Source of the DNA: Candidatus Eiseniibacteriota bacterium
GTDB taxonomy: Bacteria > Eisenbacteria > RBG-16-71-46 > SZUA-252
Reading direction: 5' to 3'
Length of the DNA: 64,000 nucleotides
Assembly: GCA_031370645.1 (NCBI GenBank)
Contig: JANMQV010000152.1
Coordinates: 16,144-80,143, forward strand
A program made the position numbers and the translations under genes. Shown piece by piece: positions 35,810 through 53,103 of the stretch. The notes under the pieces were generated by a model that had not been told where the DNA came from, made no database searches, and saw only the letters and a list, made by a program, of their open reading frames with translations. Position 1 is the first letter of the stretch. Every line of letters begins with the position of its first letter.

Positions 35810-35816
35810 GAGGCCG

Positions 35817-37702: not shown

Positions 37703-37742
37703 CGCTTCGGCGCCCGCGCATGGCGTCGGCCCTCGCCCTCCG

Positions 37743-39873: not shown

Positions 39874-40939
39874 AGCGGGCCGCGCGCTCCCGTCCGCGGG
39901 CCGCCATGGCGCGAAGCGGCTCGGGATCGGCCGCGGCGCGCCGTAGCGCTTCGGCGAGCGCCTTCGCGTCTCCGGCCGGAACCACGACGGCGTCCTCTCC
40001 CACCACTTCCGGCAGCGCGCCGCCGTCCGTCGTGACGCAGGGCGTCCCCGCCGCAAGCGCCAGAAGCGGCGGGATGCCGAACCCCTCGTACCGCGACGGA
40101 TAGACAAAGAGCGCCGCCCCCCCGAAGAGCGCGGCCAAGTCGGCGTCGGGAACATAACCGGGGAAGATCGCGTTCACTCGAAGCGCCGCCGCCATCGCTT
40201 CGCACGCTTGCCGATGTTCGTTTCGGCTTCCAGCCAGGACGAGCACGGGGCTCGTCCCGCCGGGGAACGCCGCGGCCATCGCCGCGAGAAGGGTGAAGAG
40301 TCCCTTTCGCGGATCGAATCCCCCCACGTAGAGCCAATAGGGATCTCCGAACGCGCGGCGGTTTTCGGTGAGGCGCGCCGGCGCGGCCGGCACGAACCAT
40401 CGAGGAACGGCGCACGGGACGACCTCCACGCGGGGTGCGGCGTCGGGAATCTTGGCGGCGATGTCGCGGCGGCTCGCTTCGCTCAGCGTGACGATGGCGG
40501 CCGCCCGACGCGCGGAGGAACGAATGGCGCTTCGGTAGAGGGCCCGGTGGAGCCAAGCGGGCTTCGGCCACGGCACTTCCCGAGGAAGCCGCCAGGGAAT
40601 GAGATCGTGGAGCGAAAGGACGCTCGGCATCGGGAGGCCCGCCGGCACGCCATGATTCCACGTCGCGTGAAAGAGATCGGGGCGAGGGTCGAGGGAGGAG
40701 AGGAGCCGCGGCAGGACTCCCCGCTCCCAGCGGATCCGCTGGCCGGGGGAACCGGCCGTGATGACCGGGATGGAGGCCGGGACGCGCCCGGCCGGGACCG
40801 GACGATCGGAAACCCCGACGTAGGAAACGCCGAGGCGGGGTACTTCTTCCAGTAGCTGAGCGACCAAGAGGCCGACGCCGCCCCCGGAATCGAGGGCCAG
40901 CGGCCTCAGGTCGATGGCGACGCGGAGGGAGACGCTCAC
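39797..40939 (-). CDS. glycosyltransferase family 4
   Basis: GT-B fold. C-terminal GT4 motif (SRYEGFGIPPLLALAAGTPCVTTDGGALPEVV). Convergent with the frameshifted GT2 and overlaps it by 77 nt. Confidence 0.75.
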   Translation of the reverse strand: MSVSLRVAIDLRPLALDSGGGVGLLVAQLLEEVPRLGVSYVGVSDRPVPAGRVPASIPVITAGSPGQRIRWERGVLPRLLSSLDPRPDLFHATWNHGVPAGLPMPSVLSLHDLIPWRLPREVPWPKPAWLHRALYRSAIRSSARRAAAIVTLSEASRRDIAAKIPDAAPRVEVVPCAVPRWFVPAAPARLTENRRAFGDPYWLYVGGFDPRKGLFTLLAAMAAAFPGGTSPVLVLAGSRNEHRQACEAMAAALRVNAIFPGYVPDADLAALFGGAALFVYPSRYEGFGIPPLLALAAGTPCVTTDGGALPEVVGEDAVVVPAGDAKALAEALRRAAADPEPLRAMAARGRERAARFSLDALAERTLRAYERALGRPEGRA

Positions 40940-41041: not shown

Positions 41042-42211
41042 GTGATTGCGGAGGCGGCCGTGCGTCCCACGTGGGATGTCGTATGGGTGAGTGACATCCC
41101 GTGGTCGGCCCTCTGGCAACGGCCGCAGCAGTTGGCGACCCGCTTCCCCGAGGACGTCCGGATCCTATTCGTCGAGCCATGGACGCTCGGCGCGCCCCCT
41201 GCATGGTCTCCCGAGGAAGTGGCGCCGCGGATCGCGCGGATTTCATTCCCGTTTCTGCCGCTCCATGCCCGGGATCTCCGGCTTCGCCGCTTGGCGTATC
41301 GCCTCGGCTCGTCGGCTCCCGCCACCTCGATGCTCTTCGCCGCGCAGCGACTCTGGGCGAGGCGTTGGCGCGGCTTCGGCCGGCAGGGCGCCCGTCGCCT
41401 CGTGCTGGCACAGAATTTCATGGCCACGCCGTTCCTCGAAGCGTGGCGTCCCGATCGGATCGTCTACGACATGATCGACGCGCCCCTTCACTTCGCTCCG
41501 GTGCCGCCGCGGCTCGTGCCGCAGTGGCAAGCGCTGCTCTCCCGCGCCGATCGGGTGATCGTCACGTCGGAGGCATTGGTGTCGCTCGCGAAGTCGGGAG
41601 GTGCGACGGCGCCGGCCTTGATCGGGAACGGCGTCGAGGCGGACCGATTCGATCCTAACCGCGTGACGCCGGCCGTGCTCCCTGGGAATCCCGAAGCGCC
41701 GGCGTTCGGATATGTTGGCTCGCTACATTCGTGGTTCGATCTCGAGTTGGTGGCGGCGCTCGCCGAAGCGATGCCCGAATCGCGCGTGGTGCTGGTCGGC
41801 CCCGCGCCCCCCGAGACGGCCGCGGCGTTGGAGCGGCTGATGACCTCTCGGCCGAATCTTCATTGGATGGGACCGCGGCCCTACGTGGAAGTGCCCGCGC
41901 TCGTTCGGGCCTTCCGCGTCGGCCTCATCCCGTTTCGCCGCACCCCGCTCACGGAGGCGGTGAATCCCGTGAAGCTCTACGAGTACGCCGCGGCAGGCGT
42001 TCCGACGGTGACAACTCGATTCAGTGACGAAGTCGAGGGTTGGAGCGACGCGGCGCGCGTGGCCGACGGCCCCGAAGCATTTCTCAGCGCGTGCCGGGAC
42101 GCGGCGGCCGCACCGCCCGATGTCGCGTCGCTTCGCGCGTTCGCGAGGCGGCACGATTGGGAGGCCATTGCCGCGCGGTTCGTCGCGGCCAGTCTGGAGG
42201 AGGCGGCGTGA
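41042..42211 (+). CDS. glycosyltransferase (GT-B, group 1-like)
   Basis: C-terminal half has group-1 GT features (GYVGSLHSWFDLELV, PVKLYEYAAAGVPTV). N-terminal half is divergent. Confidence 0.6.
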   Translation: MIAEAAVRPTWDVVWVSDIPWSALWQRPQQLATRFPEDVRILFVEPWTLGAPPAWSPEEVAPRIARISFPFLPLHARDLRLRRLAYRLGSSAPATSMLFAAQRLWARRWRGFGRQGARRLVLAQNFMATPFLEAWRPDRIVYDMIDAPLHFAPVPPRLVPQWQALLSRADRVIVTSEALVSLAKSGGATAPALIGNGVEADRFDPNRVTPAVLPGNPEAPAFGYVGSLHSWFDLELVAALAEAMPESRVVLVGPAPPETAAALERLMTSRPNLHWMGPRPYVEVPALVRAFRVGLIPFRRTPLTEAVNPVKLYEYAAAGVPTVTTRFSDEVEGWSDAARVADGPEAFLSACRDAAAAPPDVASLRAFARRHDWEAIAARFVAASLEEAA

Positions 42212-44628
42212 AGCAGTCGTTGGGCTGGCGGTGGGCGTACGGAGCGACGGCGCTGCTCGTGCTTGTCTTCTTCTACCCGATCGTCTTCGGCAAGGTCTTC
42301 CTCTCGCCGGACTCGGTCGCCCCCGCGGGCTTCTCGAAGATCGCCTTGGAAGCCCTCACGCAGCGCGGCGTCTACGCGCTTTGGAATCCATATCACTTCC
42401 TCGGAATGCCGTCGTTCGGGAGTCTCGCCCACGTCCCGTTCGTCTATCCGCCCGACGTCATCTTTGGATTTCTGAACCAGAATCTCGGATTCCCCGATCT
42501 CACGTGGCTCATCGCGCATTACCTCCTCCTCGCCGTGAGCATGGTGGCGCTCTTGCGGGCGCTCGGTGCGGGCCCGGAAGCGGCCGCCATCGGGGCCACG
42601 ACGCTCGCGCTGACTCCGAATCTCGTGGCGGTCGGGGCGTTCGGACACGGCAGCCAGATCATGACGGCCGCTTACCTGCCGCTCCTCTTTCTCCTCTACG
42701 ATCGCTACGCGCGGCGAGGCTCGCTCCTCGCGCTCTCCGCCTTCGCGCTCGCCGCCGCGTTCCAACTGCTGCGCGGACACGTGCAGATCGTCTTCTACAG
42801 CTGGTTCGCGCTCGGGCTCTACGCGCTATTCCTCTCCGTGGCGGCCTTCCGCGAGGGACGGCGGCCGGACGGGATTCGTGCCCTGGTGGGGCTCGCGACG
42901 GGCCTGGGGCTCGCCTTCGGGATGAGCGCCTTCCTCTACCTGCCCATTCGCGACTACGCCGAACACTCGGTGCGAAGCGCCGGCGCGGGCGGGGGCGCCG
43001 GATTCGAGTACGCCACCTCGTGGTCGTTCGCCCCGCGGGAGATGCTCACCTTCCTCATTCCTTCCATGTTCGGTTTCGGCGGGCAAACCTACTGGGGAGC
43101 CATGCCGTTCACCGACTATCCGAATTACATGGGGATCATTCCGTTCGCGCTCGCGCTCTACGCCGCCGTCACGCTCCGGGGGACGATGCGCGCGTTTCTC
43201 GTCACGCTCGCCGGCGTTTCGCTCCTCATCTCGTTCGGCAAGCACTTCGCGCCGCTCTACGCGCTCCTCTACGACCACCTGCCGTTCTTCAACAAGTTCC
43301 GCGTGCCGGTGATGATTCTCGTCCTCGTCCAATTCGCCACGGCGGCGCTCGCGGCGTTGGGGATCGACCGGGCGATGAGGATGCCCGAGGCGGGGAAGCG
43401 CACCGGGGCCGCCGCGGCCGCGGCGACGACCGCCGCGGCGGGGCCGTGGTGGCGCGCCTGCGCCATGGCCATCGGCGGAGCCATCGGCGGGATCGCGCTC
43501 TTCCAGGCGTTTCGCCCGTCGCTCGAAGCGGCAGCCGCGTCGAGTCGCGCGAACATGAATCAGGGGCTCGCGCGTCTCGCGCTCGACATGGCCTCGATCG
43601 ATCTCCTCAAGTCGGGGATCCTGCTCGCGTTCGGCTTCGCCGCGATCGCGCTCTACCGGTCCGGCCGGGTGGGGAAGAGCGTGGCGGCGGCAGCGCTCCT
43701 CTTGATCACCGCGGGCGACCTCTGGACCCTCGACCGGCGGATCATGGATCCGCAGGTCGGGACGAAGCGCGAGTACGCCGACTACTTCGCCGAGTCGCCG
43801 GAGGTGACCTTCCTTCGCGGCGATTCGACGCAGTTTCGCGTCCTCCCGACGGCGTGGAACGACGCGCGCCTCGCCTCCTTCGGTGTGGCGTCGGTGCTCG
43901 GCTACCATCCGGCGAAACCGCGGCTCTACCAAGCCTTCATCGATACGATCGGGATCAACAGCATGGAAACGCTCCAAATGCTGAACACAAAGTACGTCTT
44001 GTCCGATCGGTACTTTCCCGCCGACATGCAGGGGCTCCGGCTCCGGTTCGACGGAAAGGTGAAGACGTACGAGGTGGACGGGGCGTTGCCGCGGGCGTAC
44101 GTGGTCCATCATCTCTACCCGGTTCGCGACGAGTCGATGGCGCTCGCCGCCATTCGCGCGCACGGGGTCGATCCGCGGCTGGAGGCGGTCTGGACGAAGC
44201 CCGACCCCCTCCCGACCCTCGCCAACCCGTCGCTTCCCGATTCGGTGCGGCTCCTCCTCTTCGATTTCAACGAGGTGGAATACAGCGTCTCCACGAACGC
44301 GTCCGGTCTTCTCGTGACGATCGATCAGTGGGATCCCGACTGGAGCGTCACGGTGGACGGGAAGGCAGCCGACCTGGAGCGCGTGAATTACCTGATGCGC
44401 GGCGTGTTGATCCCCGAGGGGGTCCACATCGTTCGGTTCCACTACATGCCGCGAGCGCTCGAGGCGGGCATCCGAATCTCGGCGGCCTCCCTGGCGCTCA
44501 CGATCTTGCTGGCGGGATTGGGGCTCGTGACGGGGCGCCGGCGCCGCGCGATGCCGCCTGCCGCCACGGACGATTCGCCCGCGGCGGCGCACGCGTCCGC
44601 GGAGAAGCGAAAGGGGAAACGCGCGTGA
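42208..44628 (+). CDS. YfhO-like polytopic membrane protein (GT-C-fold glycosyltransferase candidate)
   Basis: About 807 aa: roughly 14 TM helices in the N-terminal 450 aa, then a large soluble C-terminal domain and a final TM helix. Overall architecture is that of the YfhO family. A Dpm1-like GT2 gene follows immediately (GTGA overlap). Confidence 0.5.
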   Translation: MKQSLGWRWAYGATALLVLVFFYPIVFGKVFLSPDSVAPAGFSKIALEALTQRGVYALWNPYHFLGMPSFGSLAHVPFVYPPDVIFGFLNQNLGFPDLTWLIAHYLLLAVSMVALLRALGAGPEAAAIGATTLALTPNLVAVGAFGHGSQIMTAAYLPLLFLLYDRYARRGSLLALSAFALAAAFQLLRGHVQIVFYSWFALGLYALFLSVAAFREGRRPDGIRALVGLATGLGLAFGMSAFLYLPIRDYAEHSVRSAGAGGGAGFEYATSWSFAPREMLTFLIPSMFGFGGQTYWGAMPFTDYPNYMGIIPFALALYAAVTLRGTMRAFLVTLAGVSLLISFGKHFAPLYALLYDHLPFFNKFRVPVMILVLVQFATAALAALGIDRAMRMPEAGKRTGAAAAAATTAAAGPWWRACAMAIGGAIGGIALFQAFRPSLEAAAASSRANMNQGLARLALDMASIDLLKSGILLAFGFAAIALYRSGRVGKSVAAAALLLITAGDLWTLDRRIMDPQVGTKREYADYFAESPEVTFLRGDSTQFRVLPTAWNDARLASFGVASVLGYHPAKPRLYQAFIDTIGINSMETLQMLNTKYVLSDRYFPADMQGLRLRFDGKVKTYEVDGALPRAYVVHHLYPVRDESMALAAIRAHGVDPRLEAVWTKPDPLPTLANPSLPDSVRLLLFDFNEVEYSVSTNASGLLVTIDQWDPDWSVTVDGKAADLERVNYLMRGVLIPEGVHIVRFHYMPRALEAGIRISAASLALTILLAGLGLVTGRRRRAMPPAATDDSPAAAHASAEKRKGKRA

Positions 44629-45338
44629 AAGCGCTCGTCATCATCCCGACCTACAACGAACGGGAGAACCTCACCGAGCTCCTTCGCCAGATCTTCGCGC
44701 TCGGCATCGGCCTCGAGGTTCTGATCGTGGACGACAACTCGCCGGACCGCACCGGGCAGTTGGCGGACGAGATGGCCGCCGCCGACCCGCACATCCACGT
44801 GCTCCATCGCGCGGGGAAGATGGGACTCGGTTCGGCCTACGTGGCGGGGTTTCGCTACGCCCTCGATCGCGACTACGAGGCGATCTTCGAGATGGACGCC
44901 GACTTCTCGCACAGTCCCGAGAGCCTGCCGGTGTTCCTGAAGGAACTCGAGTCGGCCGACCTCGTCCTCGGTTCTCGCTATCTGCACGGCGTGACGGTCG
45001 TGAACTGGCCGCTCAGCCGCCTCATTCTTTCCTACGCGGCGAATGTCTACAGCCGCGTCATCACGGGCATGAACATCAAGGACGCCACCGGCGGCTTCAA
45101 ATGCTTCCGGCGCCAAGTGCTCGAAGCGATCGATTGGAGTCGCGTGAAATCGGACGGCTACGGATTCCAGATCGAGATCAACTTCAAGGCGTTCCGGAAG
45201 GGATTCCGCATCAAGGAGATTCCGATCCTCTTCGTCGACCGGCGCGCCGGGGAGTCGAAGATGTCGCGGAAGATCGTATGGGAGGCCGCCTACATGGTTT
45301 GGCGCCTGCGGGTCCTCGACCTCATCGGGGCGCTGTAG
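44625..45338 (+). CDS. polyprenol-monophosphate mannose/sugar synthase (DPM1-like GT2)
   Basis: VIIPTYNEREN, VDDNSPDRTG and the FEMDADFSH DxD region are close to the Dpm1/Ppm1 family. A soluble form without a TM tail. Confidence 0.8.
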   Translation: MKALVIIPTYNERENLTELLRQIFALGIGLEVLIVDDNSPDRTGQLADEMAAADPHIHVLHRAGKMGLGSAYVAGFRYALDRDYEAIFEMDADFSHSPESLPVFLKELESADLVLGSRYLHGVTVVNWPLSRLILSYAANVYSRVITGMNIKDATGGFKCFRRQVLEAIDWSRVKSDGYGFQIEINFKAFRKGFRIKEIPILFVDRRAGESKMSRKIVWEAAYMVWRLRVLDLIGAL

Positions 45339-45349
45339 CCCGCGCGCCC

Positions 45350-47302
45350 ATGGGCGTCTCCCTCGTCGTCGTCCACTACCGCACCCGGGAGCCGCTCGCT
45401 CGCCTTCTGGCGTCGCTTCGCACCGCGCGCCCGGCTCCCGTGCGCGAGCTCATCATCGTGAACAACTCGGGCGAGCCGCTCGACGACCTGGTCGCGGGCT
45501 CCGGTCTTCCGACGCGTGTTCTCTCGCCGGGGAAGAATCTTGGATACGCGGGGGGCGTGAACCTCGGCATCCGCGCGGCGACCGAGGAGGATGTGCTGAT
45601 CCTGAACCCCGACATCCAGGTGACGCCGGGGTCGGTGGAGGCGCTCGTCCTCTGCGCCGAGCAGCGGCCGCGCGCCGGACTCGTGGCCCCGAAGCTCGTC
45701 TTCCCGGACGGAACGCTTCAGCTTTCCGTCCGGCGCTTCTACAATGCGAAAACACTCCTCCTCCGCCGGCTCCCACTGGGACCGATGGCGGAGCGGAGTC
45801 GAATCGTCCGCGACCACTTGATGGCCGATTGGGATCACGAGGAGTCGCGCCCCGTCGACTGGGCGCTCGGCGCCGCCCTCTTCGCGCGGCGGCGTGCCAT
45901 GCGGGACGTCGGGCTCATGGACGAGCGCTACTTCCTCTACTTCGAAGACGTCGATTGGTGCGAGCGGATGTGGCGCCACGGCTTCGAAGTGGTCTACTGC
46001 GCCGAGTCGCGCATGGTGCACGAGCACCAACGCGCCAGCGCCCGTCTCGAACCGCGGTCGTGGAAGGCCCATGCCGCGGGACTCCTCCGATTCGCGGAAA
46101 AGTGGAGTGCCGTCCTTTACGCCGTGAGCCAATACCGCCGCCGCATCGTGCAGGGCGTCGCTCTCGCGGGCGACCTGATCGCCGTCTCCGCCGCGTTCCT
46201 GGCGGCGTACGGCTTTCGCCTGCTCCTCGATCCGTGGTTCGAGAAGCCGGTCTTTCCGCTTCCGAACTACCGCGGTCTCTTCGTCTTCGCCCTCGCCATG
46301 ACCATTGCCTCCCTCGCCTGGAACGGACTCTATCGCCGTCTCTCGTTCACGGACGGAATCGATCGCGCGTTTTCGCTCGGGCGCGCCGTCGTGCAGGCGG
46401 GACTCCTCGTCATGGCGGCGACGTTCTTCTTCCAGACGCCCCGATTCTCGCGCGTCCTCGTCCTCCTCCTGGGGCCGCTCTGTTTCGGAATGCTTCTCGT
46501 CTCTCGCGCCGCGGTGGAGCGGCTCGGCGCCGGGGCGCGGCGACACGGTTTCGCCTTCCGCCGCGTGCTCCTCCTCGGGAGCGGCGAAGCGGCGGCGCGC
46601 GCGCGCGCGGCGCTCGAGGAAGCACGGGGCGAAGGGTTCGAGCCGCTTCGCGCCGAGTACTCGGGTCCCGAAGGGGAGACGCCGGAGGCAGCCGCGGCGA
46701 GGCTTCGGACTCTCGTCGCGACGGAACGAATCCAGATCGTCCTCCTCGTTCCCGACGAGCTGGAGCTTCCGCATCTCCTCGCCGTCGGCGCGGCCCTCCG
46801 CGAGTGCGGCGCGGCCATCTGGTGGGCCGGCCCGGCCGCGCTCTTGGCCCCGCTCGGCGCCGAGTCGCGGCTCGGCCCGCTTGACGCCGTGCTCCTCCAC
46901 ACTCCCTCGCGCGGACTCGGTCCGCGCACGCGGAAGCGAGTGAGCGATCTCTTCCTTTCGTTCTTGGTGGCGCCGTGGCGCTGGGGTGGGCTCCGCGCCT
47001 ATCTCGCCGCGCACGAGGAGCCGCTCCGTCCCGCCGAAGCGTGGCGCCAAGTGTGGAGCGGAGAACGCTCCTGGGTAGGCCGGAGCCGGTACGAAGTCGA
47101 TCGCTGGGCCGGCATACCGTCGTGGGCGCGGCTCGCGCTCCAAACGCTTCGCCCCGGGGTCGTCTCGCCCGCGCTCTCGAGCAAGAACGGCGCCGATCGC
47201 ACCGCGCGCTTGGAGTCCGAGCTCGCCTATCTCTCTCGATTCTCGATGGCGGAGGACCTGCGGCTCTTCCTTCGCGCGACGCGCGGGCAGGGAACCCGAT
47301 GA
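45350..47302 (+). CDS. fusion protein: N-terminal GT2 (rhamnosyltransferase-like) + polytopic region with degenerate polyprenyl-glycosylphosphotransferase (WbaP-like) features
   Basis: Residues 1-250 form a complete GT2 domain (VVVHYRT, NNSG, NLGYAGGVN, YFEDVDWCERM). Then come TM helices and a CoA-binding-like segment arranged as in the WbaP N-terminus. The C-terminus keeps only fragments of the Bac_transf catalytic domain. Confidence 0.6.
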   Translation: MGVSLVVVHYRTREPLARLLASLRTARPAPVRELIIVNNSGEPLDDLVAGSGLPTRVLSPGKNLGYAGGVNLGIRAATEEDVLILNPDIQVTPGSVEALVLCAEQRPRAGLVAPKLVFPDGTLQLSVRRFYNAKTLLLRRLPLGPMAERSRIVRDHLMADWDHEESRPVDWALGAALFARRRAMRDVGLMDERYFLYFEDVDWCERMWRHGFEVVYCAESRMVHEHQRASARLEPRSWKAHAAGLLRFAEKWSAVLYAVSQYRRRIVQGVALAGDLIAVSAAFLAAYGFRLLLDPWFEKPVFPLPNYRGLFVFALAMTIASLAWNGLYRRLSFTDGIDRAFSLGRAVVQAGLLVMAATFFFQTPRFSRVLVLLLGPLCFGMLLVSRAAVERLGAGARRHGFAFRRVLLLGSGEAAARARAALEEARGEGFEPLRAEYSGPEGETPEAAAARLRTLVATERIQIVLLVPDELELPHLLAVGAALRECGAAIWWAGPAALLAPLGAESRLGPLDAVLLHTPSRGLGPRTRKRVSDLFLSFLVAPWRWGGLRAYLAAHEEPLRPAEAWRQVWSGERSWVGRSRYEVDRWAGIPSWARLALQTLRPGVVSPALSSKNGADRTARLESELAYLSRFSMAEDLRLFLRATRGQGTR

Positions 47303-49500
47303 GGCGCTCCGTCGTGGCGGCATGGGCGCTCGTGCTCGTGGCGATCTCGATCGTTCCGTCCGCCGCCGAGAGCGCGACCCGGGTGTTTATCGTGAATCAC
47401 GTCGCGTCGAACGACATCCGCGGAGCGGCGCCGTGGGGCGCGTCCCTGGCGCTCGCCACAAACGGCGGGCTCGTCTTCGCCGACACGGCAACCGGGGGCA
47501 CCTCGAAAGTCCTTCGCCGAAGCGGCGGGCTCGCGTCGAACAACCTCATGGCGATCGCCGCCAGTCCCGCCGGCGCCCTCTGGATCGGCACCGCCGATCT
47601 CGGCCTCTCGCGGTACCGGCCCGACGGGACGTTCCCTCGAACGCTCACGTCGTTTGACGGACTCCCGAGCGATCGCGTGCAGGCGCTCCTCCGATCGGGG
47701 GACAGCGTCTGGGTCGCGACGAGCGGCGGCGTCGCCCTCTTCGCCGAGAACCCGGCCAACGGCCAGATCGCGCTCCGACGCTCCGATTCGAAGGCGAGCA
47801 CCGGGGGCGCGTTGGTGAGCGACGACGTGACGTCGTTCGCGGTCTGGAACGACACGCTCTGGTGCGGCACGAACGCGGGGCTCTCGATCTTCGCCTCCGG
47901 AGTCTGGAGCGCGCGAAGTTCCATCGTCTCCGAGCGAGTGCAGGCGCTCCTGGTCGAGCGCGACACGCTCTGGGTCGGAACGAAGACGGGACTTCGCGCC
48001 TACGCCGGTGGAGCCGTCGCGTCGCGCGGGCTGGCGATCGAGACGCTCGCGCTGGCGGCCATTCCCGGCGGCGTCGGGCGCGGAACCACCATCGGCCCTT
48101 ACCTCGAGTCGCCCGACGGCCTCGAGACATCGCTCGGGCTCGCCGGGCTTCCAATCGCGCGCGTCCAAGTGATGACCGCGACCGGCTCCTCGCGCGTGGT
48201 GGCGGGGACCGCGACGGGCCTCGCGCGGCGCGTCGAGGGCGCGACCCCCTGGGAGCCGATCCGGAGCGCCGGCCCCGAGTGGAACGGCGGCTCCCGCGTC
48301 TCGGCGGGAGGAGGAAACGTTTGGGTGACGCTCGGGAACGCGGTCCCGCCCGGATTGGGTATCGGGAGCGTCATGCGCTACGACGGGACGTCGTGGTCGA
48401 TCCTTACCAGCGCCTCGACGGGCGGCAATTTACAGGATGCGGGCGCCATCGGAGTCCTGGCGGCGAGGGACGGCCGGCTCTGGGTCGGGCACTGCTGTTC
48501 GGGCTCGCTCGGGCCCTCGCGCCCTCGCGCCGATCGCTGGGATCCGGGCGCCGACGTCTGGGATCGCCCCGCCGCCTATAACATCATCGCGCTCGCGCAG
48601 GCGCCCTCCGGCCGCGTCTTCGCCGCGGGCGTCGAATACGAGAACGGCCTCTATCTCCTCGACGGGACGACGGCCGCGCTGCTCGATTCCCTCACGCCCG
48701 GGAACACGAACTCCGGGCTGAGCCGAAACAATCTCCGCGACGTCGCGTTCGATCCGTCGGGTCGCGCCTGGATCGCGACGGTCGACAACGGCGTCGATCG
48801 CTGGAACGGAAACGGCACCGACGATCACGCCGACGACGGCTGGACGCACTTCGCGGGCATCGGCTTCCCGAGTCTCCAGACCACGGCGATCGCCGTCGTC
48901 GCCGGCAACGACGCGTGGGTCGGGACGCGAGGCGGAGCGGTTCGAATTGCGAACGACGCGGTCGACCTCTTGGCCACGTCGCGCGCCAACAGCGCCATCG
49001 GCGGCGCGGAGGTGAACGACCTCGCGGTGGACGACGACCATGCCGTTTGGATCGCCACCGCCGGCGGATTGACGCGGATCTCCCCCTCCGGGCAGATCGA
49101 GCGATTCGGCGCAGACGACGGGCTCGCGGACGAAGACGTGCTGGCGCTCTCGTGGGACGGCGCACGCGAGATCCTCTGGGCGGTCACCGCCGGAGGGGTT
49201 TCGGAGATTCACCCCGCCCTCTCCACGCGCGCGTCGTTCGACGACGGGAGCTACGTCTATCCCAATCCCGCGACCGCGGCGAGCGCGCCGATTCGGCTGG
49301 GCGGCATCTCGGGCGAGATTCGCGGCGAGATCCGAGATCTCTCGGGAACGCGCATTCGTTCCTTTCACGCGAACCCCGTCGCCACCGCCGTCTGGGATCT
49401 CCGCGACGAGCAGGGATCGATCGTGGCTCCGGGAATCTATCTCGTGGTGCTCCGTCAGGGCGACCTGACGCGCGTGCTCCGCGTGGCGGTCACGCGATGA
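47299..49500 (+). CDS. secreted beta-propeller protein (two-component-regulator-propeller / Reg_prop repeats) with T9SS-type C-terminal sorting domain
   Basis: Signal peptide. Repeated LW(I/V)GT..GL motifs (LWIGTADLGLSRY, VWVATSGGVALF, LWCGTNAGLSIF, LWVGTKTGLRAY, VWIATAGGLTRI). The last roughly 90 aa (YVYPNPATAAS...GIYLVVLRQGDLTRVLRVAVTR) resemble a T9SS CTD. Confidence 0.55.
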   Translation: MRRSVVAAWALVLVAISIVPSAAESATRVFIVNHVASNDIRGAAPWGASLALATNGGLVFADTATGGTSKVLRRSGGLASNNLMAIAASPAGALWIGTADLGLSRYRPDGTFPRTLTSFDGLPSDRVQALLRSGDSVWVATSGGVALFAENPANGQIALRRSDSKASTGGALVSDDVTSFAVWNDTLWCGTNAGLSIFASGVWSARSSIVSERVQALLVERDTLWVGTKTGLRAYAGGAVASRGLAIETLALAAIPGGVGRGTTIGPYLESPDGLETSLGLAGLPIARVQVMTATGSSRVVAGTATGLARRVEGATPWEPIRSAGPEWNGGSRVSAGGGNVWVTLGNAVPPGLGIGSVMRYDGTSWSILTSASTGGNLQDAGAIGVLAARDGRLWVGHCCSGSLGPSRPRADRWDPGADVWDRPAAYNIIALAQAPSGRVFAAGVEYENGLYLLDGTTAALLDSLTPGNTNSGLSRNNLRDVAFDPSGRAWIATVDNGVDRWNGNGTDDHADDGWTHFAGIGFPSLQTTAIAVVAGNDAWVGTRGGAVRIANDAVDLLATSRANSAIGGAEVNDLAVDDDHAVWIATAGGLTRISPSGQIERFGADDGLADEDVLALSWDGAREILWAVTAGGVSEIHPALSTRASFDDGSYVYPNPATAASAPIRLGGISGEIRGEIRDLSGTRIRSFHANPVATAVWDLRDEQGSIVAPGIYLVVLRQGDLTRVLRVAVTR

Positions 49501-49525
49501 CGCCGCGCGCGCTCTCCGACTCGCG

Positions 49526-50500
49526 ATGAAATTCGAGTCGCCGCTCGTCCTCGTTTCGCCTCCCGATCGCGAGCGCTGGGACGCGCTCGTCGCGGGCGCG
49601 CCGGGGGCGAGCTTCATCCACACACCGGCGTGGGCCAAACTCTGGACCGACGAATGGCCGGACTCCCGCTGGGAAGCGCTCGTGGTGGAGGAAGGGGGCG
49701 CCTACGCCGCGGGGCTCGGAGCGATCGTTCGGCGCCGCGGGCCGTTTCGCACGATCGACGCCATGCCCTTCGCCACCTACGGCGGGCCACTCGTCCGAAA
49801 GGGACACCCCGACCCCCGCGGCCTCTCGACGGCGCTCCTCGAAGGATTCGCCCGATGGATCGGAGGCCCCTTCGTGCTCCGCGCTTCGCTGGCGTGGGAG
49901 CGGGGCGATCGCGACGCGTTTCCCGACCGCCTGCCTCCGCTCGAGTCGTTCACGCACGTGCTGCCGCTGTCGGCGGATTACGAGGAGGTCGCGTCCCACT
50001 TCTCTCCCTCCACGCGACGGCTCGTTCGGCAGGCCGACGAGAGCGGCCTTTCGATCGAAACGGCCGACACGATCGAAAAGATCGGCGCCTTCTACGGCCT
50101 GGCCGTGGAAACCGTGCGGCGCCGCGGCGGCACGCCGAAGCCGCGATCGCTCTACGAACGGATCTTTCACGATCTCGTCTCGAAGGGATCGGGACGCTAT
50201 CACCTCGTCCGTCACGGCGAGAACGTGGTGGCGGGGAGCCTCCATTTTTTCCACGAGGGCGTGGCGACGAACTGGCTCCCGGTTTCGAGCGAGGCGGCGT
50301 GGCCGCTTCGGCCGAATAATTTCCTCATCGCCTCGATCCTCGAAACGCTGAGCGCCGCGGGCTACCTGGAATACAACTTCGGCGCCTCGCCCCCCGACGC
50401 CTCGGGTCTCATCCGCTACAAAGAGGGGTGGGGCGCGCGGAGCCGCCCCGTCCTTCTCGCGGGGCGCCGCTCGGGACTCCACCGGCGCTTCCGCCCGTAG
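49526..50500 (+). CDS. FemAB-like / GNAT-fold acyltransferase (peptidoglycan-bridge-formation fold; often seen next to EPS loci)
   Basis: Length and duplicated GNAT-like fold arrangement (NWLPVSSEAAWPLRPNNFLIASILE). No closer family motif confirmed. Confidence 0.45.
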   Translation: MKFESPLVLVSPPDRERWDALVAGAPGASFIHTPAWAKLWTDEWPDSRWEALVVEEGGAYAAGLGAIVRRRGPFRTIDAMPFATYGGPLVRKGHPDPRGLSTALLEGFARWIGGPFVLRASLAWERGDRDAFPDRLPPLESFTHVLPLSADYEEVASHFSPSTRRLVRQADESGLSIETADTIEKIGAFYGLAVETVRRRGGTPKPRSLYERIFHDLVSKGSGRYHLVRHGENVVAGSLHFFHEGVATNWLPVSSEAAWPLRPNNFLIASILETLSAAGYLEYNFGASPPDASGLIRYKEGWGARSRPVLLAGRRSGLHRRFRP

Positions 50501-50508
50501 GCCGACGC

Positions 50509-51651
50509 GTGCGGATCCTCCTCCTCGCGCACGCACCGTCGATCCACACGCAGCGCTGGGCGCGGTCGCTCGGGGCGCGGGGGCACGACGTGCGGCTTCT
50601 CTCGGTGACGCCGGCGCCGAGCGCGGCCGTCCCGGGCGAGCCGATCGGTTGGCGCGGCGCGCCGCTTCCGTTTCTCCGCTATGCCGCCGCGCGGGGAAAG
50701 GTGCGGCGCGTGCTCGAGTCGTGGAAGCCGGACGCGACGGTCGCGCACTTTCTTCCGAATTACGGGTTCCTCGCCATGCTCTCCGGCGCGCATCCCTTCG
50801 TGCTGACGGCGTGGGGCTCCGATCTCCTCGTGAACGCCCGCCGCTCGCCGTTTCACGAGGCGCGCGCTCGCGCGGTGCTGGGGCGCGCCTCGCTGATCCA
50901 CGTCGATTCCGAGAATCTCGCCGTCGCCGCGCGGGCGCTTGGCGCCGAGCCCCACCGCCTCTGGATGCGCCCGTGGGGCGTGGAGGTGGACGCCCTCGCG
51001 CCCGCGTCGCCCTGGAATGAGCGACGCGTGCGCGCCGGCGCGATCCGCGTCCTCTGGAATCGGATGCTCGAACCGCTCTACGATCCCGAGACCTTGCTTC
51101 GGGCGCTCGAGGCGCTCCGACGGAGCGGCCGCGATGTACGAGCCACGATCGCGGGGGACGGTCCGCTCCGTCCCGCGCTCGAGGTCGCTGCTGCGCGTCT
51201 CGGCCTCGCCGCGAACGTCCGCTTCACCGGGCGGGTGGACGAAGCGGCGATGCGCGCCCTCTACCGGGAACATGAGTTCTACGTCTCCATGTCCCGATCC
51301 GATTCCACTTCGCAGTCGCTCCTCGAGGCGATGGCGTCGGGGCTCTATCCGATTGTGAGCGACATCGCGGGGAACCTCCCCTGGGTGCGGGGCGCCGCGG
51401 CCGCGCGCGAAGCGGCGGGCGATGCGGGGCGCCTCGTGCCTTGCGGCGACGACCGTGCGTTGGCGGCGGCGATCATCGCGGCGGCCGACGATCCCGATGG
51501 CGCGGAACGAATCGCTCGAGGGATCGCGCGCGTTCGCGCGGAGGCGGACTGGAGAGAGACCGTGTCGCAATTCGAGGCGCGGCTCGCCCTGCTTTCGCGC
51601 GACGCCCGAAACGGCGCGGGAGCAGGACCCGGGGGAGCGAGCCGGGCATGA
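50509..51651 (+). CDS. glycosyltransferase family 4
   Basis: GT-B fold. C-terminal GT4 motif (SRSDSTSQSLLEAMASGLYPIVSDIAGN). Confidence 0.7.
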   Translation: MRILLLAHAPSIHTQRWARSLGARGHDVRLLSVTPAPSAAVPGEPIGWRGAPLPFLRYAAARGKVRRVLESWKPDATVAHFLPNYGFLAMLSGAHPFVLTAWGSDLLVNARRSPFHEARARAVLGRASLIHVDSENLAVAARALGAEPHRLWMRPWGVEVDALAPASPWNERRVRAGAIRVLWNRMLEPLYDPETLLRALEALRRSGRDVRATIAGDGPLRPALEVAAARLGLAANVRFTGRVDEAAMRALYREHEFYVSMSRSDSTSQSLLEAMASGLYPIVSDIAGNLPWVRGAAAAREAAGDAGRLVPCGDDRALAAAIIAAADDPDGAERIARGIARVRAEADWRETVSQFEARLALLSRDARNGAGAGPGGASRA

Positions 51652-52985
51652 AACGGCTTCTCGTCCTCGCCTACTTCTTTCCGCCCCTCGGCGGCGGCGG
51701 ATGCCAGCGGACGCTCAAACTCGTTCGCTACCTCGAACCGAACGGATGGGTCTCCACCGTGGTGACGGTGAAGGAACCCGACTACTGGATCCTCGACCCG
51801 ACGCTCCTCGAGGAGATTCCCGCTTCGTGCGAGGTGGCCCGCGTGAGCGCGCTGACTTCGCAGCGTCTCCTCCGCCTCCTTGGGGGTGCGGGCGTTCAAC
51901 TGGAGGAGCGACAGGGGACTCGGCGCGCGGGAGCCTTCCGCGCTCTGAGACGCCTGCAGCAATTCGTCGCGATCCCCGACGGCTATCGCCCCTGGGCGCG
52001 CGCCGCCGAGCGCGCCGCCGCTGCGCGCCTCGCGAAGGGAGGCATCGACGCGCTCTGGACCACGTCGTCGCCCGAGAGCGCGCATCTCGCCGGCCTCGCG
52101 CTGAAACGGAAATTCGCGCTCCCGTGGATCGCCGACTTTCGTGATCCGTGGGTCGGGCGCGTCACCTATGCGCCTCCCACCGCGTGGCACGATCGCCGGC
52201 ACCGCGCGCTCGAACGTGAAGTCGTCGCCACCGCCGATCGCGTCACTGTCGTGAGCGAAGCCATGGCGGCGCGGTTCCGGGAGCGCTATCCCGCGCTCGG
52301 CCCCGCGCACTTCGTCGTGCTTCCGAACGGATACGACCCCGACGACTGGGCGCGTGTCGCGCGACTCCCGTTGTCGCTCGAGCCGGACGCGGCTCGTGAG
52401 GCCGACGCGCGGCGTTTCGTCGTGCTTCATGCCGGCCAGCTGGCGCATCGCCCCACCGTCGGCGACCTGCTCGCCGCCGTGGCCCGCCTCGTGGAGGAAT
52501 CGCCCGCACGCCGGAAGACGCTTCGGCTCCGTTTCATGGGTGGAAACGAAGGGCTCGACGCGGCGACCGTGGCGCGGAAGGGGCTCTCGGAGGTCGTGGA
52601 TCTTCTGCCGTCGCGTCCCCACCTCGAGGCGATGGCGGCCATGAGGCGGGCGAATCTCCTTGTCCTCTTGGGCCATGGCGGAGAGGCCGATTCCCAACTC
52701 TACACGGGGAAAATCTACGAATACCTCACGAGTGGAACGCCGCTTGTCGGCGTCCTCGGCCCAGGCCCGGCCAGCGACCTCATCTCCCGAGCGGGAGGCG
52801 GCCGCGCGTGTCTTCCAGGGGACGTAGATGGCGTCTGTTCCGCGATTCGATCCCCCCTGGAGGCCTGGGAACGACATGAAAAGCGGCAGGACCTCCCACT
52901 TCCAGCGATCGCCGTCGAGTGGGAGCGCCGAACCATGGCCCGGCAGGCCGCCGAACTCCTCGATTCAGTCCATTCCAAGCGCTAG
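51648..52985 (+). CDS. glycosyltransferase family 4
   Basis: N-terminal FFPPLGGGGCQRT motif typical of GT4 enzymes acting on membrane-bound acceptors. C-terminal GT-B Rossmann domain. Confidence 0.7.
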   Translation: MKRLLVLAYFFPPLGGGGCQRTLKLVRYLEPNGWVSTVVTVKEPDYWILDPTLLEEIPASCEVARVSALTSQRLLRLLGGAGVQLEERQGTRRAGAFRALRRLQQFVAIPDGYRPWARAAERAAAARLAKGGIDALWTTSSPESAHLAGLALKRKFALPWIADFRDPWVGRVTYAPPTAWHDRRHRALEREVVATADRVTVVSEAMAARFRERYPALGPAHFVVLPNGYDPDDWARVARLPLSLEPDAAREADARRFVVLHAGQLAHRPTVGDLLAAVARLVEESPARRKTLRLRFMGGNEGLDAATVARKGLSEVVDLLPSRPHLEAMAAMRRANLLVLLGHGGEADSQLYTGKIYEYLTSGTPLVGVLGPGPASDLISRAGGGRACLPGDVDGVCSAIRSPLEAWERHEKRQDLPLPAIAVEWERRTMARQAAELLDSVHSKR

Positions 52986-53074: not shown

Positions 53075-53103
53075 TTGACACCCCCTATCGGGATGCCTAG
53101 GAT
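53075..53103 (+). promoter_or_regulatory. sigma70-like promoter of the dcw cluster (TTGACA-17 nt-TAGGAT), preceded by an AT-rich UP-like element
   Basis: TTGACA at 53075-53080, a 17-nt spacer, TAGGAT at 53098-53103. An unusual AT-rich stretch sits just upstream (53041-53066, GGAAATAAAATTTCATTTTTTCTAGG) in a 70% GC genome. Confidence 0.5.

Follow-up and report, generated by a model that had tools for sequence, protein, structure and literature searches.

Results

The locus

Within the 64-kb Ca. Eisenbacteria window (the whole stretch of DNA analysed) lies an open reading frame of 733 codons plus stop, referred to here as the PorZ-like gene, flanked by glycosyltransferase genes (Table 1). A GC3 of 0.87 marks the frame as real and coding. 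Its start codon (ATG, 47299) shares nucleotides with the stop codon (TGA) of the upstream GT2 fusion gene (ATGA, ...CCCGATGAGGCGC). Next come a FemAB-like gene and a pair of GT4 genes; the overlap and these neighbours had both been noted in an earlier, sequence-only reading of this DNA. Start/stop overlaps of 4 nt occur at four junctions of the operon, and no convincing terminator was seen in it. The only sigma-70-like promoter match between 40800 and 53400 is situated 5' of mraZ and probably marks where the glycosylation operon ends and the dcw cluster begins. The PorZ-like gene is embedded in this glycosyltransferase operon and probably translationally coupled to it.

Within the locus, conservation is strongest in the gene for the GT2 polyprenyl-phosphate hexose synthase (78-91% identity in tier 1, the close relatives described below). 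The GT2 fusion protein aligns to positions 2-269 of the 445 in TIGR03025; the catalytic C-terminal half of the EPS sugar transferase was not detected in it.

Table 1. Features of the locus and of the PorZ-like gene, with positions in the window.
Feature	Position	Strand	Remarks
Second CTD-bearing secreted protein	22453..25227	+	924 aa
Upstream part of glycosylation locus	32100..40939		Seven genes, the next seven lines
LPG_synthase_TM-like	32100-33218
TMEM260-like GT-C with TPR	33215-35809
NAD epimerase/dehydratase	35817-36770
GT2	36737-37702
GT4	37743-38900
GT2	38891-39843		Apparent frameshift
GT4	39797-40939	-
GT4-like (TuaH-like) glycosyltransferase	41042..42211	+	Opens co-directional overlapping run
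YfhO-like GT-C membrane glycosyltransferase	42208..44628	+	GTGA overlap at each end
GT2 polyprenyl-phosphate hexose synthase, DPM1/AglJ/GtrB-like	44625..45338	+	
GT2 fusion gene	45350..47302	+	GT2 plus membrane/CoA_binding_3 N-terminal half of EPS polyprenyl glycosylphosphotransferase; PF00535, PF13727
PorZ-like gene	47299..49500	+	Signal peptide, two seven-bladed Reg_prop beta-propellers, T9SS-type CTD
Signal peptide	47299..47370	+	aa 1-24; predicted by inspection
N-terminal strand and beta-propeller 1	47371..48273	+	Strand aa 27-34; propeller aa ~40-321, seven four-stranded blades (DSSP strand list)
beta-propeller 2	48274..49233	+	aa ~333-641, seven blades
C-terminal domain (CTD)	49246..49497	+	aa 650-733; seven-stranded beta-sandwich of T9SS type-A CTD type, nearest PorZ CTD
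FemAB / Acetyltransf_6 family transferase	49526..50500	+	PF13480 1e-18, PF02388 3e-6; candidate VimA analogue
GT4 glycosyltransferase	50428..51651	+	True start probably slightly 3' of 50428
GT4-like glycosyltransferase	51648..52985	+	Final gene ahead of mraZ; start overlaps preceding stop (ATGA)
Sigma-70-like promoter match	53075..53103	+	TTGACA-17-TAGGAT

A secreted double propeller

The N-terminus of the protein, MRRSVVAAWALVLVAISIVPSAAE, resembles a Sec signal peptide by inspection. No other segment is so poorly conserved (0.39 column identity), and residues 1-24 alone are disordered or helical, with low pLDDT, in an AF2 model that otherwise consists of seven plus seven four-stranded blades followed by a seven-stranded C-terminal sandwich (pLDDT 92.4, pTM 0.89). 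Pfam Reg_prop matches with an E-value of 5.3e-14 (51 bits, cutoff 20.4), and the regular expression [LVIMFAW]W[VIFACLM][GAS]T finds seven motifs, at residues 94, 137, 187 and 224 in propeller 1 and at residues 490, 539 and 583. Signal peptide, Pfam match, model and neighbouring genes together bear out the proposal of a secreted Reg_prop propeller protein within a glycosyltransferase locus, for which at least five repeats had been claimed.

Conservation is highest at aa 85-175, in propeller 1. The N-terminal strand may, by analogy with PorZ, close propeller 2. Propeller 2 holds an invariant H398-C399-C400 motif; the GHCC is replaced by W-G-x-G in PorZ relatives, and HCC is missing from tier-2 and other-phylum orthologues despite the same gene context. 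The protein lacks a transmembrane helix as well as Y_Y_Y, kinase and receiver domains, and the chain stops after the CTD. Orthologues are single-copy and length-invariant (~730-745 aa), with fixed synteny across Eisenbacteria.

Relationship to PorZ

The closest known system is PorZ of P. gingivalis (PG1604/PGN_0509, PDB 5m11; NCBIfam NF052228, 'T9SS anionic LPS delivery protein PorZ'), a component of the T9SS machinery to which the anchor glycan binds and which passes this glycan on to the PorU sortase (PMC8545088). PorZ is reported to have the same domain plan, two seven-bladed propellers and a CTD, and to retain that CTD (PMC5121618). The two proteins are alike in size (733 aa, compared to 776 aa for PorZ), in carrying a Sec signal peptide (predicted here) and two consecutive seven-bladed propellers of Reg_prop-like repeats, and in a seven-stranded C-terminal T9SS CTD that ends ...G-x-Y-x-V-x-(I/V/L)...R.

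A Foldseek search of the PDB returned 5m11 as the top match (E 6e-30), with a TM-score of 0.65/0.64 across the whole chain; identity is only 19%. Between the family profile and 5m11 (E 3.2e-26) there is a single collinear alignment, 293-738 to 273-758, that reaches the last residue. PorZ is the top NCBIfam family in all 59 members of the family. For the window protein the NCBIfam matches are just two, both sub-threshold: PorZ (70 bits, cutoff 260; residues 476-731 aligned to positions 479-755 of 757) and TIGR04183 (16.3 bits, E 0.007, cutoff 23). Among loci recovered with the family profile, PorZ equivalog scores grade down from 346 in Chitinophagaceae through 296 in Ignavibacteriaceae, 203 in locus L045, 162 in locus L057 and 154 in Zixibacteria to 90 in tier-2 Eisenbacteria and 70 for the window protein, a gradual fall that, on profile scores, suggests a bridge of orthology to PorZ.

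The hybrid two-component (HTCS) sensors of Bacteroides (BT4663, 4a2l/4a2m; BT3049, 3v9f; BT4673, 3ott/3va6) also consist of two seven-bladed Reg_prop propellers followed by an Ig-like domain. Their sensor domains bind glycans, and repeat-level similarity to the PorZ-like family is strong (146 bits). However, this similarity is scattered over 4-6 separate repeat stretches rather than collinear as with PorZ, and Foldseek E-values of ~1e-25 are accompanied by TM-scores of only 0.31-0.35, showing that the repeats are held in common but the interdomain assembly is not. Unlike these sensors, the PorZ-like protein ends without membrane segment or signalling domains.

The PorZ-like protein also departs from PorZ, in its low identity and score, in the invariant GHCC, and in being encoded within a glycosylation operon of at least nine genes adjoining the dcw cluster; its host phylum is one without a described T9SS, and its ligand and partners are predictions. 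We nevertheless conclude that it is a remote, full-length structural homologue of PorZ and not a generic cargo protein.

The C-terminal domain

Motifs of the CTD are YVYPNP, GIYLVVL and, at its end, ...RVAVTR. Its AF2 model, built from the CTD only, has a pLDDT of 86, and its top four PDB matches are PorZ, NucA and, twice, PorU (entries 5m11, 8glk_D and 6za2); the NucA match is a substrate CTD in a translocon complex. Against PorZ the model gives a TM-score of 0.70 and an rmsd of 2.8 A at 29% identity. The family profile is collinear with the CTD of P. gingivalis PorZ (5m11 residues 672-758), and an HMM built on the CTD alone gives 48 bits for the PorZ CTD, against 22 bits for generic CTDs. 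Conservation of the CTD (0.66) equals that of the propellers (0.64-0.66), which fits a retained domain.

The sequence-only reading had named TIGR04183 and PF18962 as the profiles by which its T9SS-like CTD should be confirmed. The former falls under its cutoff, and the latter does not match the protein and matches 6 of the 59 family members at E<=1. Formally, the earlier claim fails on this point, yet the model, the PorZ alignment and the CTD HMM outweigh the missed thresholds: the domain is a T9SS-type CTD, though one only partly confirmed by the named profiles.

A second secreted protein in the window is matched by the same CTD HMM. It scores 38.3 bits with FlgD_ig (cutoff 27), 21.6 bits with TIGR04183 and 28.5 bits with the CTD region of the PorU model, implying that T9SS-type CTDs are used on other proteins of the genome.

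Gene order in relatives

All 33 tier-1 (close) loci whose flanks are long enough have the order GT4-YfhO-GT2-(GT2 fusion)-PorZ-like-FemAB-GT4-GT4-mraZ-rsmH-ftsI (43-80% identity), the FemAB-like gene lying directly 3' of the PorZ-like gene in each. The same order is present in tier-2 Eisenbacteria, at 25% identity, and chromosome OY969801.1 carries the locus. The position of the first of these GT4 genes (50428..51651), 3' of FemAB, is conserved in Eisenbacteria, in Zixibacteria (L049) and in L057. In Zixibacteria locus L049, and likewise in loci L057 and L059, a gene for a C25 peptidase with a T9SS CTD comes after the run PorZ-like-(FemAB)-GT4-GT4-GT2; PorU is the NCBIfam family that this peptidase matches best, and with TIGR04183 it reaches 29-34 bits, above cutoff. 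FemAB or glycosyltransferase neighbours were not detected at the highest-scoring PorZ genes (Chitinophagaceae L048 and Ignavibacteriaceae L046), so the linkage of PorZ to glycosylation genes is not universal.

The FemAB-like enzyme and comparable glycan loci

The best NCBIfam match of the FemAB-like protein is TIGR03019 (6.3e-14), near full length (residues 17-309 to positions 2-281 of 330). VimA of P. gingivalis is reported to match the same model and to attach Ser or Gly to that pathway's linking sugar (PMC7468200); on the common match, the FemAB-like protein is a candidate VimA analogue. The Wbp/Vim pathway of P. gingivalis and T. forsythia (VimA, VimE, VimF; PMC7468200) resembles the locus in that a TIGR03019-matching FemAB/GNAT-type enzyme is linked genetically to a component of T9SS attachment, and the FemAB-like gene adjoins GT4 genes much as VimF is a predicted glycosyltransferase. 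Unlike that pathway, the locus has no recognisable Wbp-pathway genes (WbpA/B/D/E) and no VimE-like (CE4) deacetylase, and the vim genes of P. gingivalis are not described as linked to porZ. Since the FemAB-like gene adjoins the cell-wall (dcw) cluster, a role in peptidoglycan is conceivable.

Exosortase loci offer a second parallel. Models from PEP-CTERM/EPS systems (TIGR03019 FemAB, TIGR03025 EPS sugar transferase, stp1-3 GT4s, PrsT TPR protein) are the best or near-best NCBIfam matches for several products of the locus, namely the FemAB-like protein, the GT4s, the GT2 fusion in its N-terminal half and the TMEM260-like protein in its TPR region, and in both cases a C-terminal protein-sorting signal is coupled to a dedicated glycan locus. 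However, all scores are far under the equivalog cutoffs, no exosortase was seen in the locus, and neither CTD-bearing protein examined has a PEP-CTERM-type tail, the sorting domain being a T9SS-type beta-sandwich.

Discussion

We consider it fairly probable that this gene is the counterpart, in Eisenbacteria, of PorZ, the subunit that presents glycan in the T9SS 'attachment complex', and that the operon makes the anchor glycan. In its favour, PorU-like C25 proteins with a CTD exist in metagenome-assembled genomes labelled Eisenbacteria, although such labels are unreliable and none of these proteins could be tied to a genome with this exact locus. The earlier interpretation is partly supported: a scaffold or lectin-like component was one of its suggestions, which homology to PorZ essentially upholds and makes more precise.

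A glycan-binding scaffold for polysaccharide assembly or export, independent of T9SS, is unlikely. Its propellers would bind the operon's nascent polymer in the periplasm or at the surface, and its C-terminal Ig-like sandwich would be a mere protein-protein interaction module, with no sortase-type transfer. The gene is fixed, phylum-wide, in a glycan operon beside a cell-wall/division cluster; the related HTCS propellers are periplasmic glycan binders; CTD profiles are sub-threshold; and none of SprA/Sov, PorV, PorQ and PorK-N is encoded within the 64-kb window. A literature search found no link between Eisenbacteria and T9SS. Against such a scaffold stand a CTD that is specifically PorZ-like, with T9SS CTDs as its nearest solved structures, a whole-chain geometry that is that of PorZ and not of HTCS sensors, the PorU-like gene adjoining the orthologous module in Zixibacteria-type genomes, and the presence of other CTD proteins in the window.

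The first of the two options in the sequence-only reading was a cargo protein modified by its neighbours. On this view it would be a secreted surface propeller protein, such as an adhesin or lectin, that loses its CTD and is glycan-anchored or O-glycosylated. Signal peptide and T9SS-type CTD agree with this, as do the TMEM260-like and YfhO-like GT-C proteins, families tied to protein or surface-polymer glycosylation. We do not favour it and think it quite improbable: single-copy orthologues of constant length and fixed synteny typify machinery rather than variable cargo, conservation in the CTD matches that elsewhere in the protein, and fold, family profile and CTD all best match PorZ, a machinery component that keeps its CTD (PMC5121618).

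An orphan sensor domain (of the detached periplasmic hybrid two-component type, signalling through a separate partner) or a propeller hydrolase/lactonase acting on the polymer is very improbable, for while database names ('ligand-binding sensor domain-containing protein' from JGI, 'two-component regulator propeller domain-containing protein' from PGAP), the top raw profile scores of HTCS sensors, a Pfam SGL match over blades of propeller 2 (28.7 bits, cutoff 26.3) and the invariant His-Cys-Cys motif point that way, signalling domains are absent, the HTCS matches are confined to repeats, the SGL match reflects generic propeller resemblance, and the motif is not shared by the more distant orthologues.

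As a PorZ counterpart, the protein would be exported by Sec and would cross the outer membrane via T9SS using its CTD, which would be kept as a docking module as in PorZ. At the cell surface its two propellers would bind a glycolipid or polysaccharide and hand it to a PorU-like C25 sortase, which would remove the CTDs of cargo proteins and couple the C-termini thus exposed to an amine of the glycan. The polyprenyl-phosphate hexose synthase, the YfhO-like GT-C, the GT2 fusion and the GT4 enzymes would build this anchor, and the FemAB-like enzyme, in the role of VimA, may add an amino acid as the source of the nucleophilic amine.

In Porphyromonas, PorZ delivers the sugar chain that serves as anchor to the enzyme by which secreted proteins are attached to the cell. 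The occurrence of a PorZ-like gene in a sugar-building operon throughout the uncultured phylum Eisenbacteria suggests that this operon probably makes such an anchor.

The glycosylation operon and its propeller gene

With a G+C content of 63–71% in the window, many spurious ORFs overlap the PorZ-like region; the frame under study has a GC3 of 0.87, the composition of a real gene. Its product is a protein of 733 aa whose N-terminus looks like a Sec-type signal peptide (MRRSVVAAWALVLVAISIVPSAAE). The sequence-only reading had described at least five propeller (Reg_prop) repeats, a start overlapping the upstream GT2 fusion gene, and a FemAB-like gene and two GT4 genes downstream. These features are all present: the ATG shares ATGA with the upstream TGA, the neighbors are as described, and seven LWxGT-type motifs were found, four in the first half of the protein and three in the second. 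The Reg_prop family (PF07494) matches the protein at 51 bits, against a Pfam cutoff of 20.4, and matches all 59 members of the alignment of its close relatives.

The glycosylation cluster opens with LPG_synthase_TM-like, TMEM260-like GT-C (with TPR repeats) and NAD epimerase/dehydratase genes, continues with GT2, GT4, GT2, GT4 (on the minus strand), GT4/TuaH-like and YfhO-like GT-C genes, and ends with a DPM1/AglJ-like polyprenyl-phosphate hexose synthase gene, the GT2 fusion, the PorZ-like gene, the FemAB-like gene and two GT4 genes. On its 3' side stand mraZ, a STAS gene, rsmH, ftsL, ftsI, murE and the remaining dcw cluster. The genes from 41042 to 52985 are all co-directional, with 4-nt start/stop overlaps at four junctions and short gaps elsewhere; no convincing terminator was found in this run, and the sole promoter-like site precedes mraZ.

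No profile detects the catalytic half of the GT2 fusion, which carries the N-terminal half of a WbaP/WcaJ-type phosphoglycosyl transferase and may be a pseudo-PGT scaffold. Remnants of Bac_transf motifs are visible by eye in its C-terminal ~110 aa; Zixibacteria-type loci encode the GT2 part in a gene of its own (292 aa). Another GT2 gene of the cluster has an apparent frameshift near 39151–39178: set against the orthologue of locus L002, which is intact (317 aa), its N-terminal 86 aa lie in one frame and residues 74–308 in another, so that either the sequencing or assembly is at fault or the gene is a pseudogene. The STAS-domain (anti-sigma-antagonist-like) gene between mraZ and rsmH, unusual at the head of a dcw cluster, is kept in other Eisenbacteria loci.

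Coordinates of features in the window and in compared loci (numbering of each locus)
Feature	Locus	Coordinates	Strand	Remark
bshC-like and BshA-type GT4-like genes	window	5255-8064	+	two adjacent genes
Repeat-rich putative gene	window	8081-9205	-	374 aa
Second secreted CTD protein	window	22453-25227	+	924 aa
GT2 gene, split	window	38891-39843	+	apparent frameshift
GT2 + membrane/CoA_binding_3 N-terminal half of EPS polyprenyl glycosylphosphotransferase	window	45350-47302	+	TIGR03025 positions 2-269 of 445
PorZ-like gene	window	47299-49500	+	733 aa
His-Cys-Cys motif	window	48490-48498		aa 398-400
Acetyltransf_6/FemAB	window	49526-50500		downstream of PorZ-like gene
GT4	window	50428-51651		downstream of FemAB-like gene
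GT4	window	51648-52985		then mraZ
STAS-domain gene	window	53641-54093	+	between mraZ and rsmH
STAS-domain gene	L001	16171-16638		
STAS-domain gene	L002	16273-16725		
C25+CTD	L049	16676-19216	-	
C25+CTD	L057	16669-19158	-	
C25+CTD	L059	16938-19382	-	
Tandem C25+CTD paralogues	L081	2354-12194		Eisenbacteria-labeled
Tandem C25+CTD paralogues	L082	10001-23807		Eisenbacteria-labeled
C25+CTD	L083	2146-4302		604 aa

Fold and relationship to PorZ

Within NCBIfam the protein matches two families only, the PorZ equivalog (NF052228, 'T9SS anionic LPS delivery protein') and the T9SS CTD family TIGR04183. The PorZ match is confined to residues 476–731 and scores 70.2 bits (E = 1.3e-19), short of the curated cutoff of 260 bits. 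NF052228 also matches 59 of 59 family members (best E = 7.8e-27); it is likely that none of them attains 260 bits, the bit score having been seen for the window protein alone. Compared with PorZ itself, the family profile aligns in a single collinear stretch (293–738 to PorZ 273–758, E = 3.2e-26) that extends across the CTD up to the final residue. Raw scores against the sensors of hybrid two-component systems (HTCS) are above that for PorZ, but are accumulated in four to six separate repeat-level stretches.

The crystal structure of PorZ consists of two seven-bladed propellers and a CTD (PMC5121618). An AlphaFold (AF2) model of the whole PorZ-like protein, built from 59 sequences, is confident (pLDDT 92.4, pTM 0.89) and has a like domain plan: an N-terminal strand, seven four-stranded blades, seven further blades and a seven-stranded C-terminal sandwich. 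Propeller 2 of PorZ is closed by a 'velcro' strand from the N-terminus; in the model an N-terminal strand is present and its closure role is putative. Foldseek ranked the PorZ crystal structure from P. gingivalis (5m11) first in the PDB, over the whole chain (E = 6e-30, TM 0.65/0.64): the fold, including the relative arrangement of the domains, is closest to that of PorZ. The Bacteroides HTCS sensors 4a2l, 3v9f, 3ott and 3va6 came next (E about 1e-25, TM 0.31–0.35); judged from the model, they have the repeat in common with the PorZ-like protein and differ from it in assembly. We conclude that the window protein is very probably a distant homologue of PorZ that shares its architecture and its type of CTD.

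We rejected an HTCS sensor by domain content and interdomain geometry; no Y_Y_Y domain, transmembrane segment, histidine kinase or receiver was detected in the protein, and the ORF stops at the CTD. Matches to Pfam SGL and to the NCBIfam F510_1955 glycosylhydrolase family, which might indicate an enzyme, were discounted as generic propeller similarity.

A His-Cys-Cys motif (WVGHCCS) is invariant in 59 of 59 aligned close members; it may bind a metal, take part in redox chemistry or have a structural role. At this position W-G-x-G is found in the PorZ relatives of the divergent (tier-2) Eisenbacteria, Zixibacteria, Ignavibacteria and Bacteroidota.

The C-terminal domain

The T9SS-like CTD proposed from sequence alone stands by homology and structure, as a PorZ-like CTD, and falls by the curated profiles: TIGR04183 gives 16.3 bits, under its cutoff of 23, and PF18962 does not match the window protein. 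At E ≤ 1 the two profiles match 44 (best E = 2.2e-6) and 6 (best E = 0.028) of the 59 family members, respectively. An HMM of the Eisenbacteria CTD scores 48 bits against the CTD of P. gingivalis PorZ and 22 bits against generic CTDs (those of the window's other CTD protein and of PorU-like proteins). The CTD-only AlphaFold model (pLDDT 86) is a 3+4 beta-sandwich of seven strands, and the solved structures closest to it are T9SS CTDs: the PorZ CTD is the best match in the PDB (TM 0.70, rmsd 2.8 Å, 29% identity), and the rest of the top four are the CTD of NucA (8glk), a T9SS substrate whose CTD is bound there in the translocon complex, and that of PorU (6za2), twice. PorZ, RgpB and HBP35 carry the signature G-V-Y-(V/A)-V-x-(I/V) within their last ~25 residues (PMC5121618). 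The window protein ends ...APGIYLVVLRQGDLTRVLRVAVTR, where G-I-Y-L-V-V-L...R agrees with this signature; G712 does not vary among the 59 aligned members, and Y714 is close to invariant among the aligned CTDs. Homology identifies the domain as a T9SS CTD of the PorZ-like kind. Its mean column identity is 0.66, against 0.64–0.66 for the propellers; conservation equal to that of the propellers would be expected of a retained docking domain, as in PorZ, and not of a disposable signal.

Conservation within Eisenbacteria

The PorZ-like protein has 338 database relatives, nearly all of 730–745 aa and 44–99% identical to it; where the organism is named, the source is for the most part a Candidatus Eisenbacteria MAG, and there the protein is annotated as 'hypothetical', as 'two-component regulator propeller domain-containing' or as 'ligand-binding sensor domain-containing'. 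A scan in which each GTDB species was represented by a single genome recovered 77 loci. The locus is also carried by the Ca. Eisenbacteria chromosome OY969801.1 (3.12 Mb; positions 2,131,626–2,153,773), by the 2.14-Mb contig ERZ25039492:contig_14241 and by CAVUEC010000011.1. On a tblastn map the gene order of the window recurs in 33 of 33 close loci (43–80% identity) with enough flank, and also in the divergent Eisenbacteria group, where the PorZ-like protein is only about 25% identical; three loci reached through homologues at 48–49% identity are likewise fully syntenic. MAG labels are clearly imperfect, because syntenic close (tier-1) loci also occur in bins labeled Hyphomicrobiales, Omnitrophota, Binatia and others. 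Among them, the fully syntenic loci L012, L014, L018, L031, L032 and L033 (43–50% identity) bear the labels Hyphomicrobiales, Omnitrophota, Bacteroidota, Binatia, Dormiibacterota and Limnocylindrales, and these bins are probably mislabeled or contaminated.

A candidate sortase beside the module in sister phyla

Full-length relatives of 21–30% identity were also found by the scan in other FCB lineages. Scores on the PorZ model (cutoff 260 bits) form a gradient, from 346 bits in a Chitinophagaceae locus (L048) and 296 in an Ignavibacteriaceae locus (L046), through 203 (L045), 162 (L057), 154 (Zixibacteria, L049) and 128 (Marinimicrobia, L053), to 90 in tier-2 Eisenbacteria (L040) and 70 in the window. 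No FemAB or GT neighbors were detected at the two highest-scoring loci, L048 and L046; the FemAB/GT linkage is therefore a trait of the non-Bacteroidota lineages described here and is not universal.

The neighborhood in L049, L057 and L059 reads lnt, PorZ-like, FemAB-like, GT4, GT4, GT2, a gene on the opposite strand, and mraZ–rsmH–ftsI, except that no FemAB-like gene was detected in the otherwise like module of L059. The opposite-strand gene, standing between the glycosyltransferase module and mraZ, encodes a C25 peptidase of 814–846 aa with a T9SS CTD. Among NCBIfam families the PorU sortase fits this peptidase best (66–67 bits), and TIGR04183 matches above cutoff at 29–34 bits; homologues carry PF01364, PF08126, PF18962 and PF13860, and the short form has ~25 close database relatives. 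We regard this compact protein of Zixibacteria-type genomes as a PorU-like candidate sortase. Thus, in sister phyla the orthologous PorZ-like module lies directly beside a candidate sortase.

Possible type IX secretion in the lineage

None of the core T9SS genes (SprA/Sov, PorV, PorQ/PorP, PorK/L/M/N) was found within the 64-kb window. Literature searches returned nothing on Eisenbacteria and T9SS or type IX secretion, and nothing relevant on PorZ in other FCB phyla. The window does encode a second secreted protein with a CTD (FlgD_ig above cutoff, TIGR04183 21.6 bits, CTD region of the PorU model 28.5 bits). No domain was recognized in it besides this near-threshold CTD, and its gene lies downstream of genes for a SurA-like PPIase, radC and a TPR lipoprotein. 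We rejected it as PorU: the CTD alone matches PorU-like proteins and the C25 domain is absent.

When the profile of the PorU-like family was searched exhaustively, 6,551 representatives matched at E ≤ 1e-30, one of which is an NCBI protein labeled Candidatus Eisenbacteria sp., with several relatives likewise labeled; the entry P0234 was reached through this search. A word-indexed search with the PorU-like alignment gave 37 matches, none labeled Eisenbacteria. The Eisenbacteria-labeled C25+CTD proteins form tandem arrays, have PorU as best family (56–68 bits), and none is tied to a genome with the exact locus of the window. Two Eisenbacteria-labeled loci, L081 and L082, hold two to three tandem paralogues of ~1,200 aa followed by a TPR protein; in L083, a MAG contig of 72% G+C, a shorter C25+CTD gene is followed by recA with an intein (Hint/LAGLIDADG-like insert). 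Around the five PorU-like genes of L081–L085 there are no PorV, SprA or PorK–N neighbors, and none of the five is linked to a tier-1 genome.

Two further regions of the window were noted. A putative gene with a GC3 of 0.72, below that of its neighbors, encodes a repeat-rich protein, carboxypeptidase-regulatory-like by eye, with a very weak match to the CTD HMM (E = 0.17). Two adjacent genes resemble, by eye, bshC and a GT4 gene of the BshA type, which would point to bacillithiol synthesis in this genome.

Proposed function and alternatives

The best NCBIfam match of the FemAB-like protein is TIGR03019 (pepcterm_femAB), at 51.7 bits (E = 6.3e-14; residues 17–309 to profile 2–281 of 330), short of the family cutoff of 260 bits; TIGR03019 is also the best match of the Zixibacteria counterpart, again over nearly the whole length. 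VimA of P. gingivalis is reported to match this family too and to set serine versus glycine on the linking sugar, T9SS cargo being attached to this aminoacyl sugar (PMC7468200, Veith et al.). PorZ, for its part, keeps its CTD after secretion; A-LPS, the anchor glycan, is its ligand and the PorU sortase its partner (PMC8545088, PMC5121618). The window locus differs from the Wbp/Vim pathway in that it contains neither a VimE-like deacetylase gene nor Wbp genes.

It is from the parallel between a PorZ-like shuttle, a VimA-like transferase and GT4 enzymes that we propose a mechanism by analogy. The PorZ-like protein would be secreted through a T9SS with its CTD kept, would bind the glycan made by its own operon, and would present this glycan to a PorU-like sortase, the enzyme by which CTD cargo is anchored; the amine acceptor would be supplied by the FemAB-like enzyme. 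Taken as a whole, this account is on balance probable. The main alternative is a scaffold for glycan assembly that acts independently of the T9SS; the position among glycosyltransferase genes and the window's want of core T9SS genes are consistent with it, the PorZ-type CTD argues against it, and we think it unlikely. Ordinary cargo, itself glycosylated, would also possess a CTD and might be encoded in such an operon; given a CTD as conserved as the propellers, this is a distinctly poor prospect. An orphan sensor or enzyme, which the propeller repeats might suggest and the PorZ-like arrangement of domains speaks against, is very improbable.

What is understood of the attachment of T9SS cargo by way of PorZ and A-LPS or the linking sugar comes largely from a small number of oral Bacteroidota, and the shuttle, sortase and linking-sugar synthesis genes of the model species are not described as a single cluster in the papers cited here. 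A tentative extension of the proposed mechanism, which we consider possible rather than probable, is that the PorZ-like, VimA-like FemAB, two GT4 and GT2 genes, joined in some phyla by a PorU-like gene, are an ancient 'cargo-attachment module' inherited beside the dcw cluster by several FCB phyla (Eisenbacteria, Zixibacteria and related ones). The anchor glycan and the delivery and ligation proteins for T9SS cargo would once have been encoded together as one unit; Bacteroidota would have scattered it later, and Eisenbacteria would have enlarged it to an operon of 9–15 genes by adding YfhO-like/TMEM260-like GT-C genes and polyprenyl-phosphate hexose synthases.

Significance

Since PorZ has been described before, the system is of a known kind. 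Against the searchable literature, the new points are that PorZ orthologues are recognized in Eisenbacteria, Zixibacteria and relatives; that these are constantly linked in an operon with VimA-like and glycosyltransferase genes beside the dcw cluster; that a PorU-like gene adjoins the PorZ-like module in some phyla; that the operon has expanded specifically in Eisenbacteria; and that a GHCC motif is invariant in the close family members. A recognizable but unannotated PorZ homologue is fixed inside a glycan-synthesis operon throughout an uncultured phylum. If the proposed mechanism is true, a lower-threshold or subfamily PorZ model could let annotation pipelines recover these proteins, T9SS attachment machinery would reach Eisenbacteria and Zixibacteria, and the operon would provide a compact, testable set of genes for an anchor glycan and an amino-acid-bearing linking sugar, together with a hint at the ancestral organization of the attachment system. 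Were the module also ancient, the operon would name the genes for a surface-anchoring glycolipid of an uncultured phylum.
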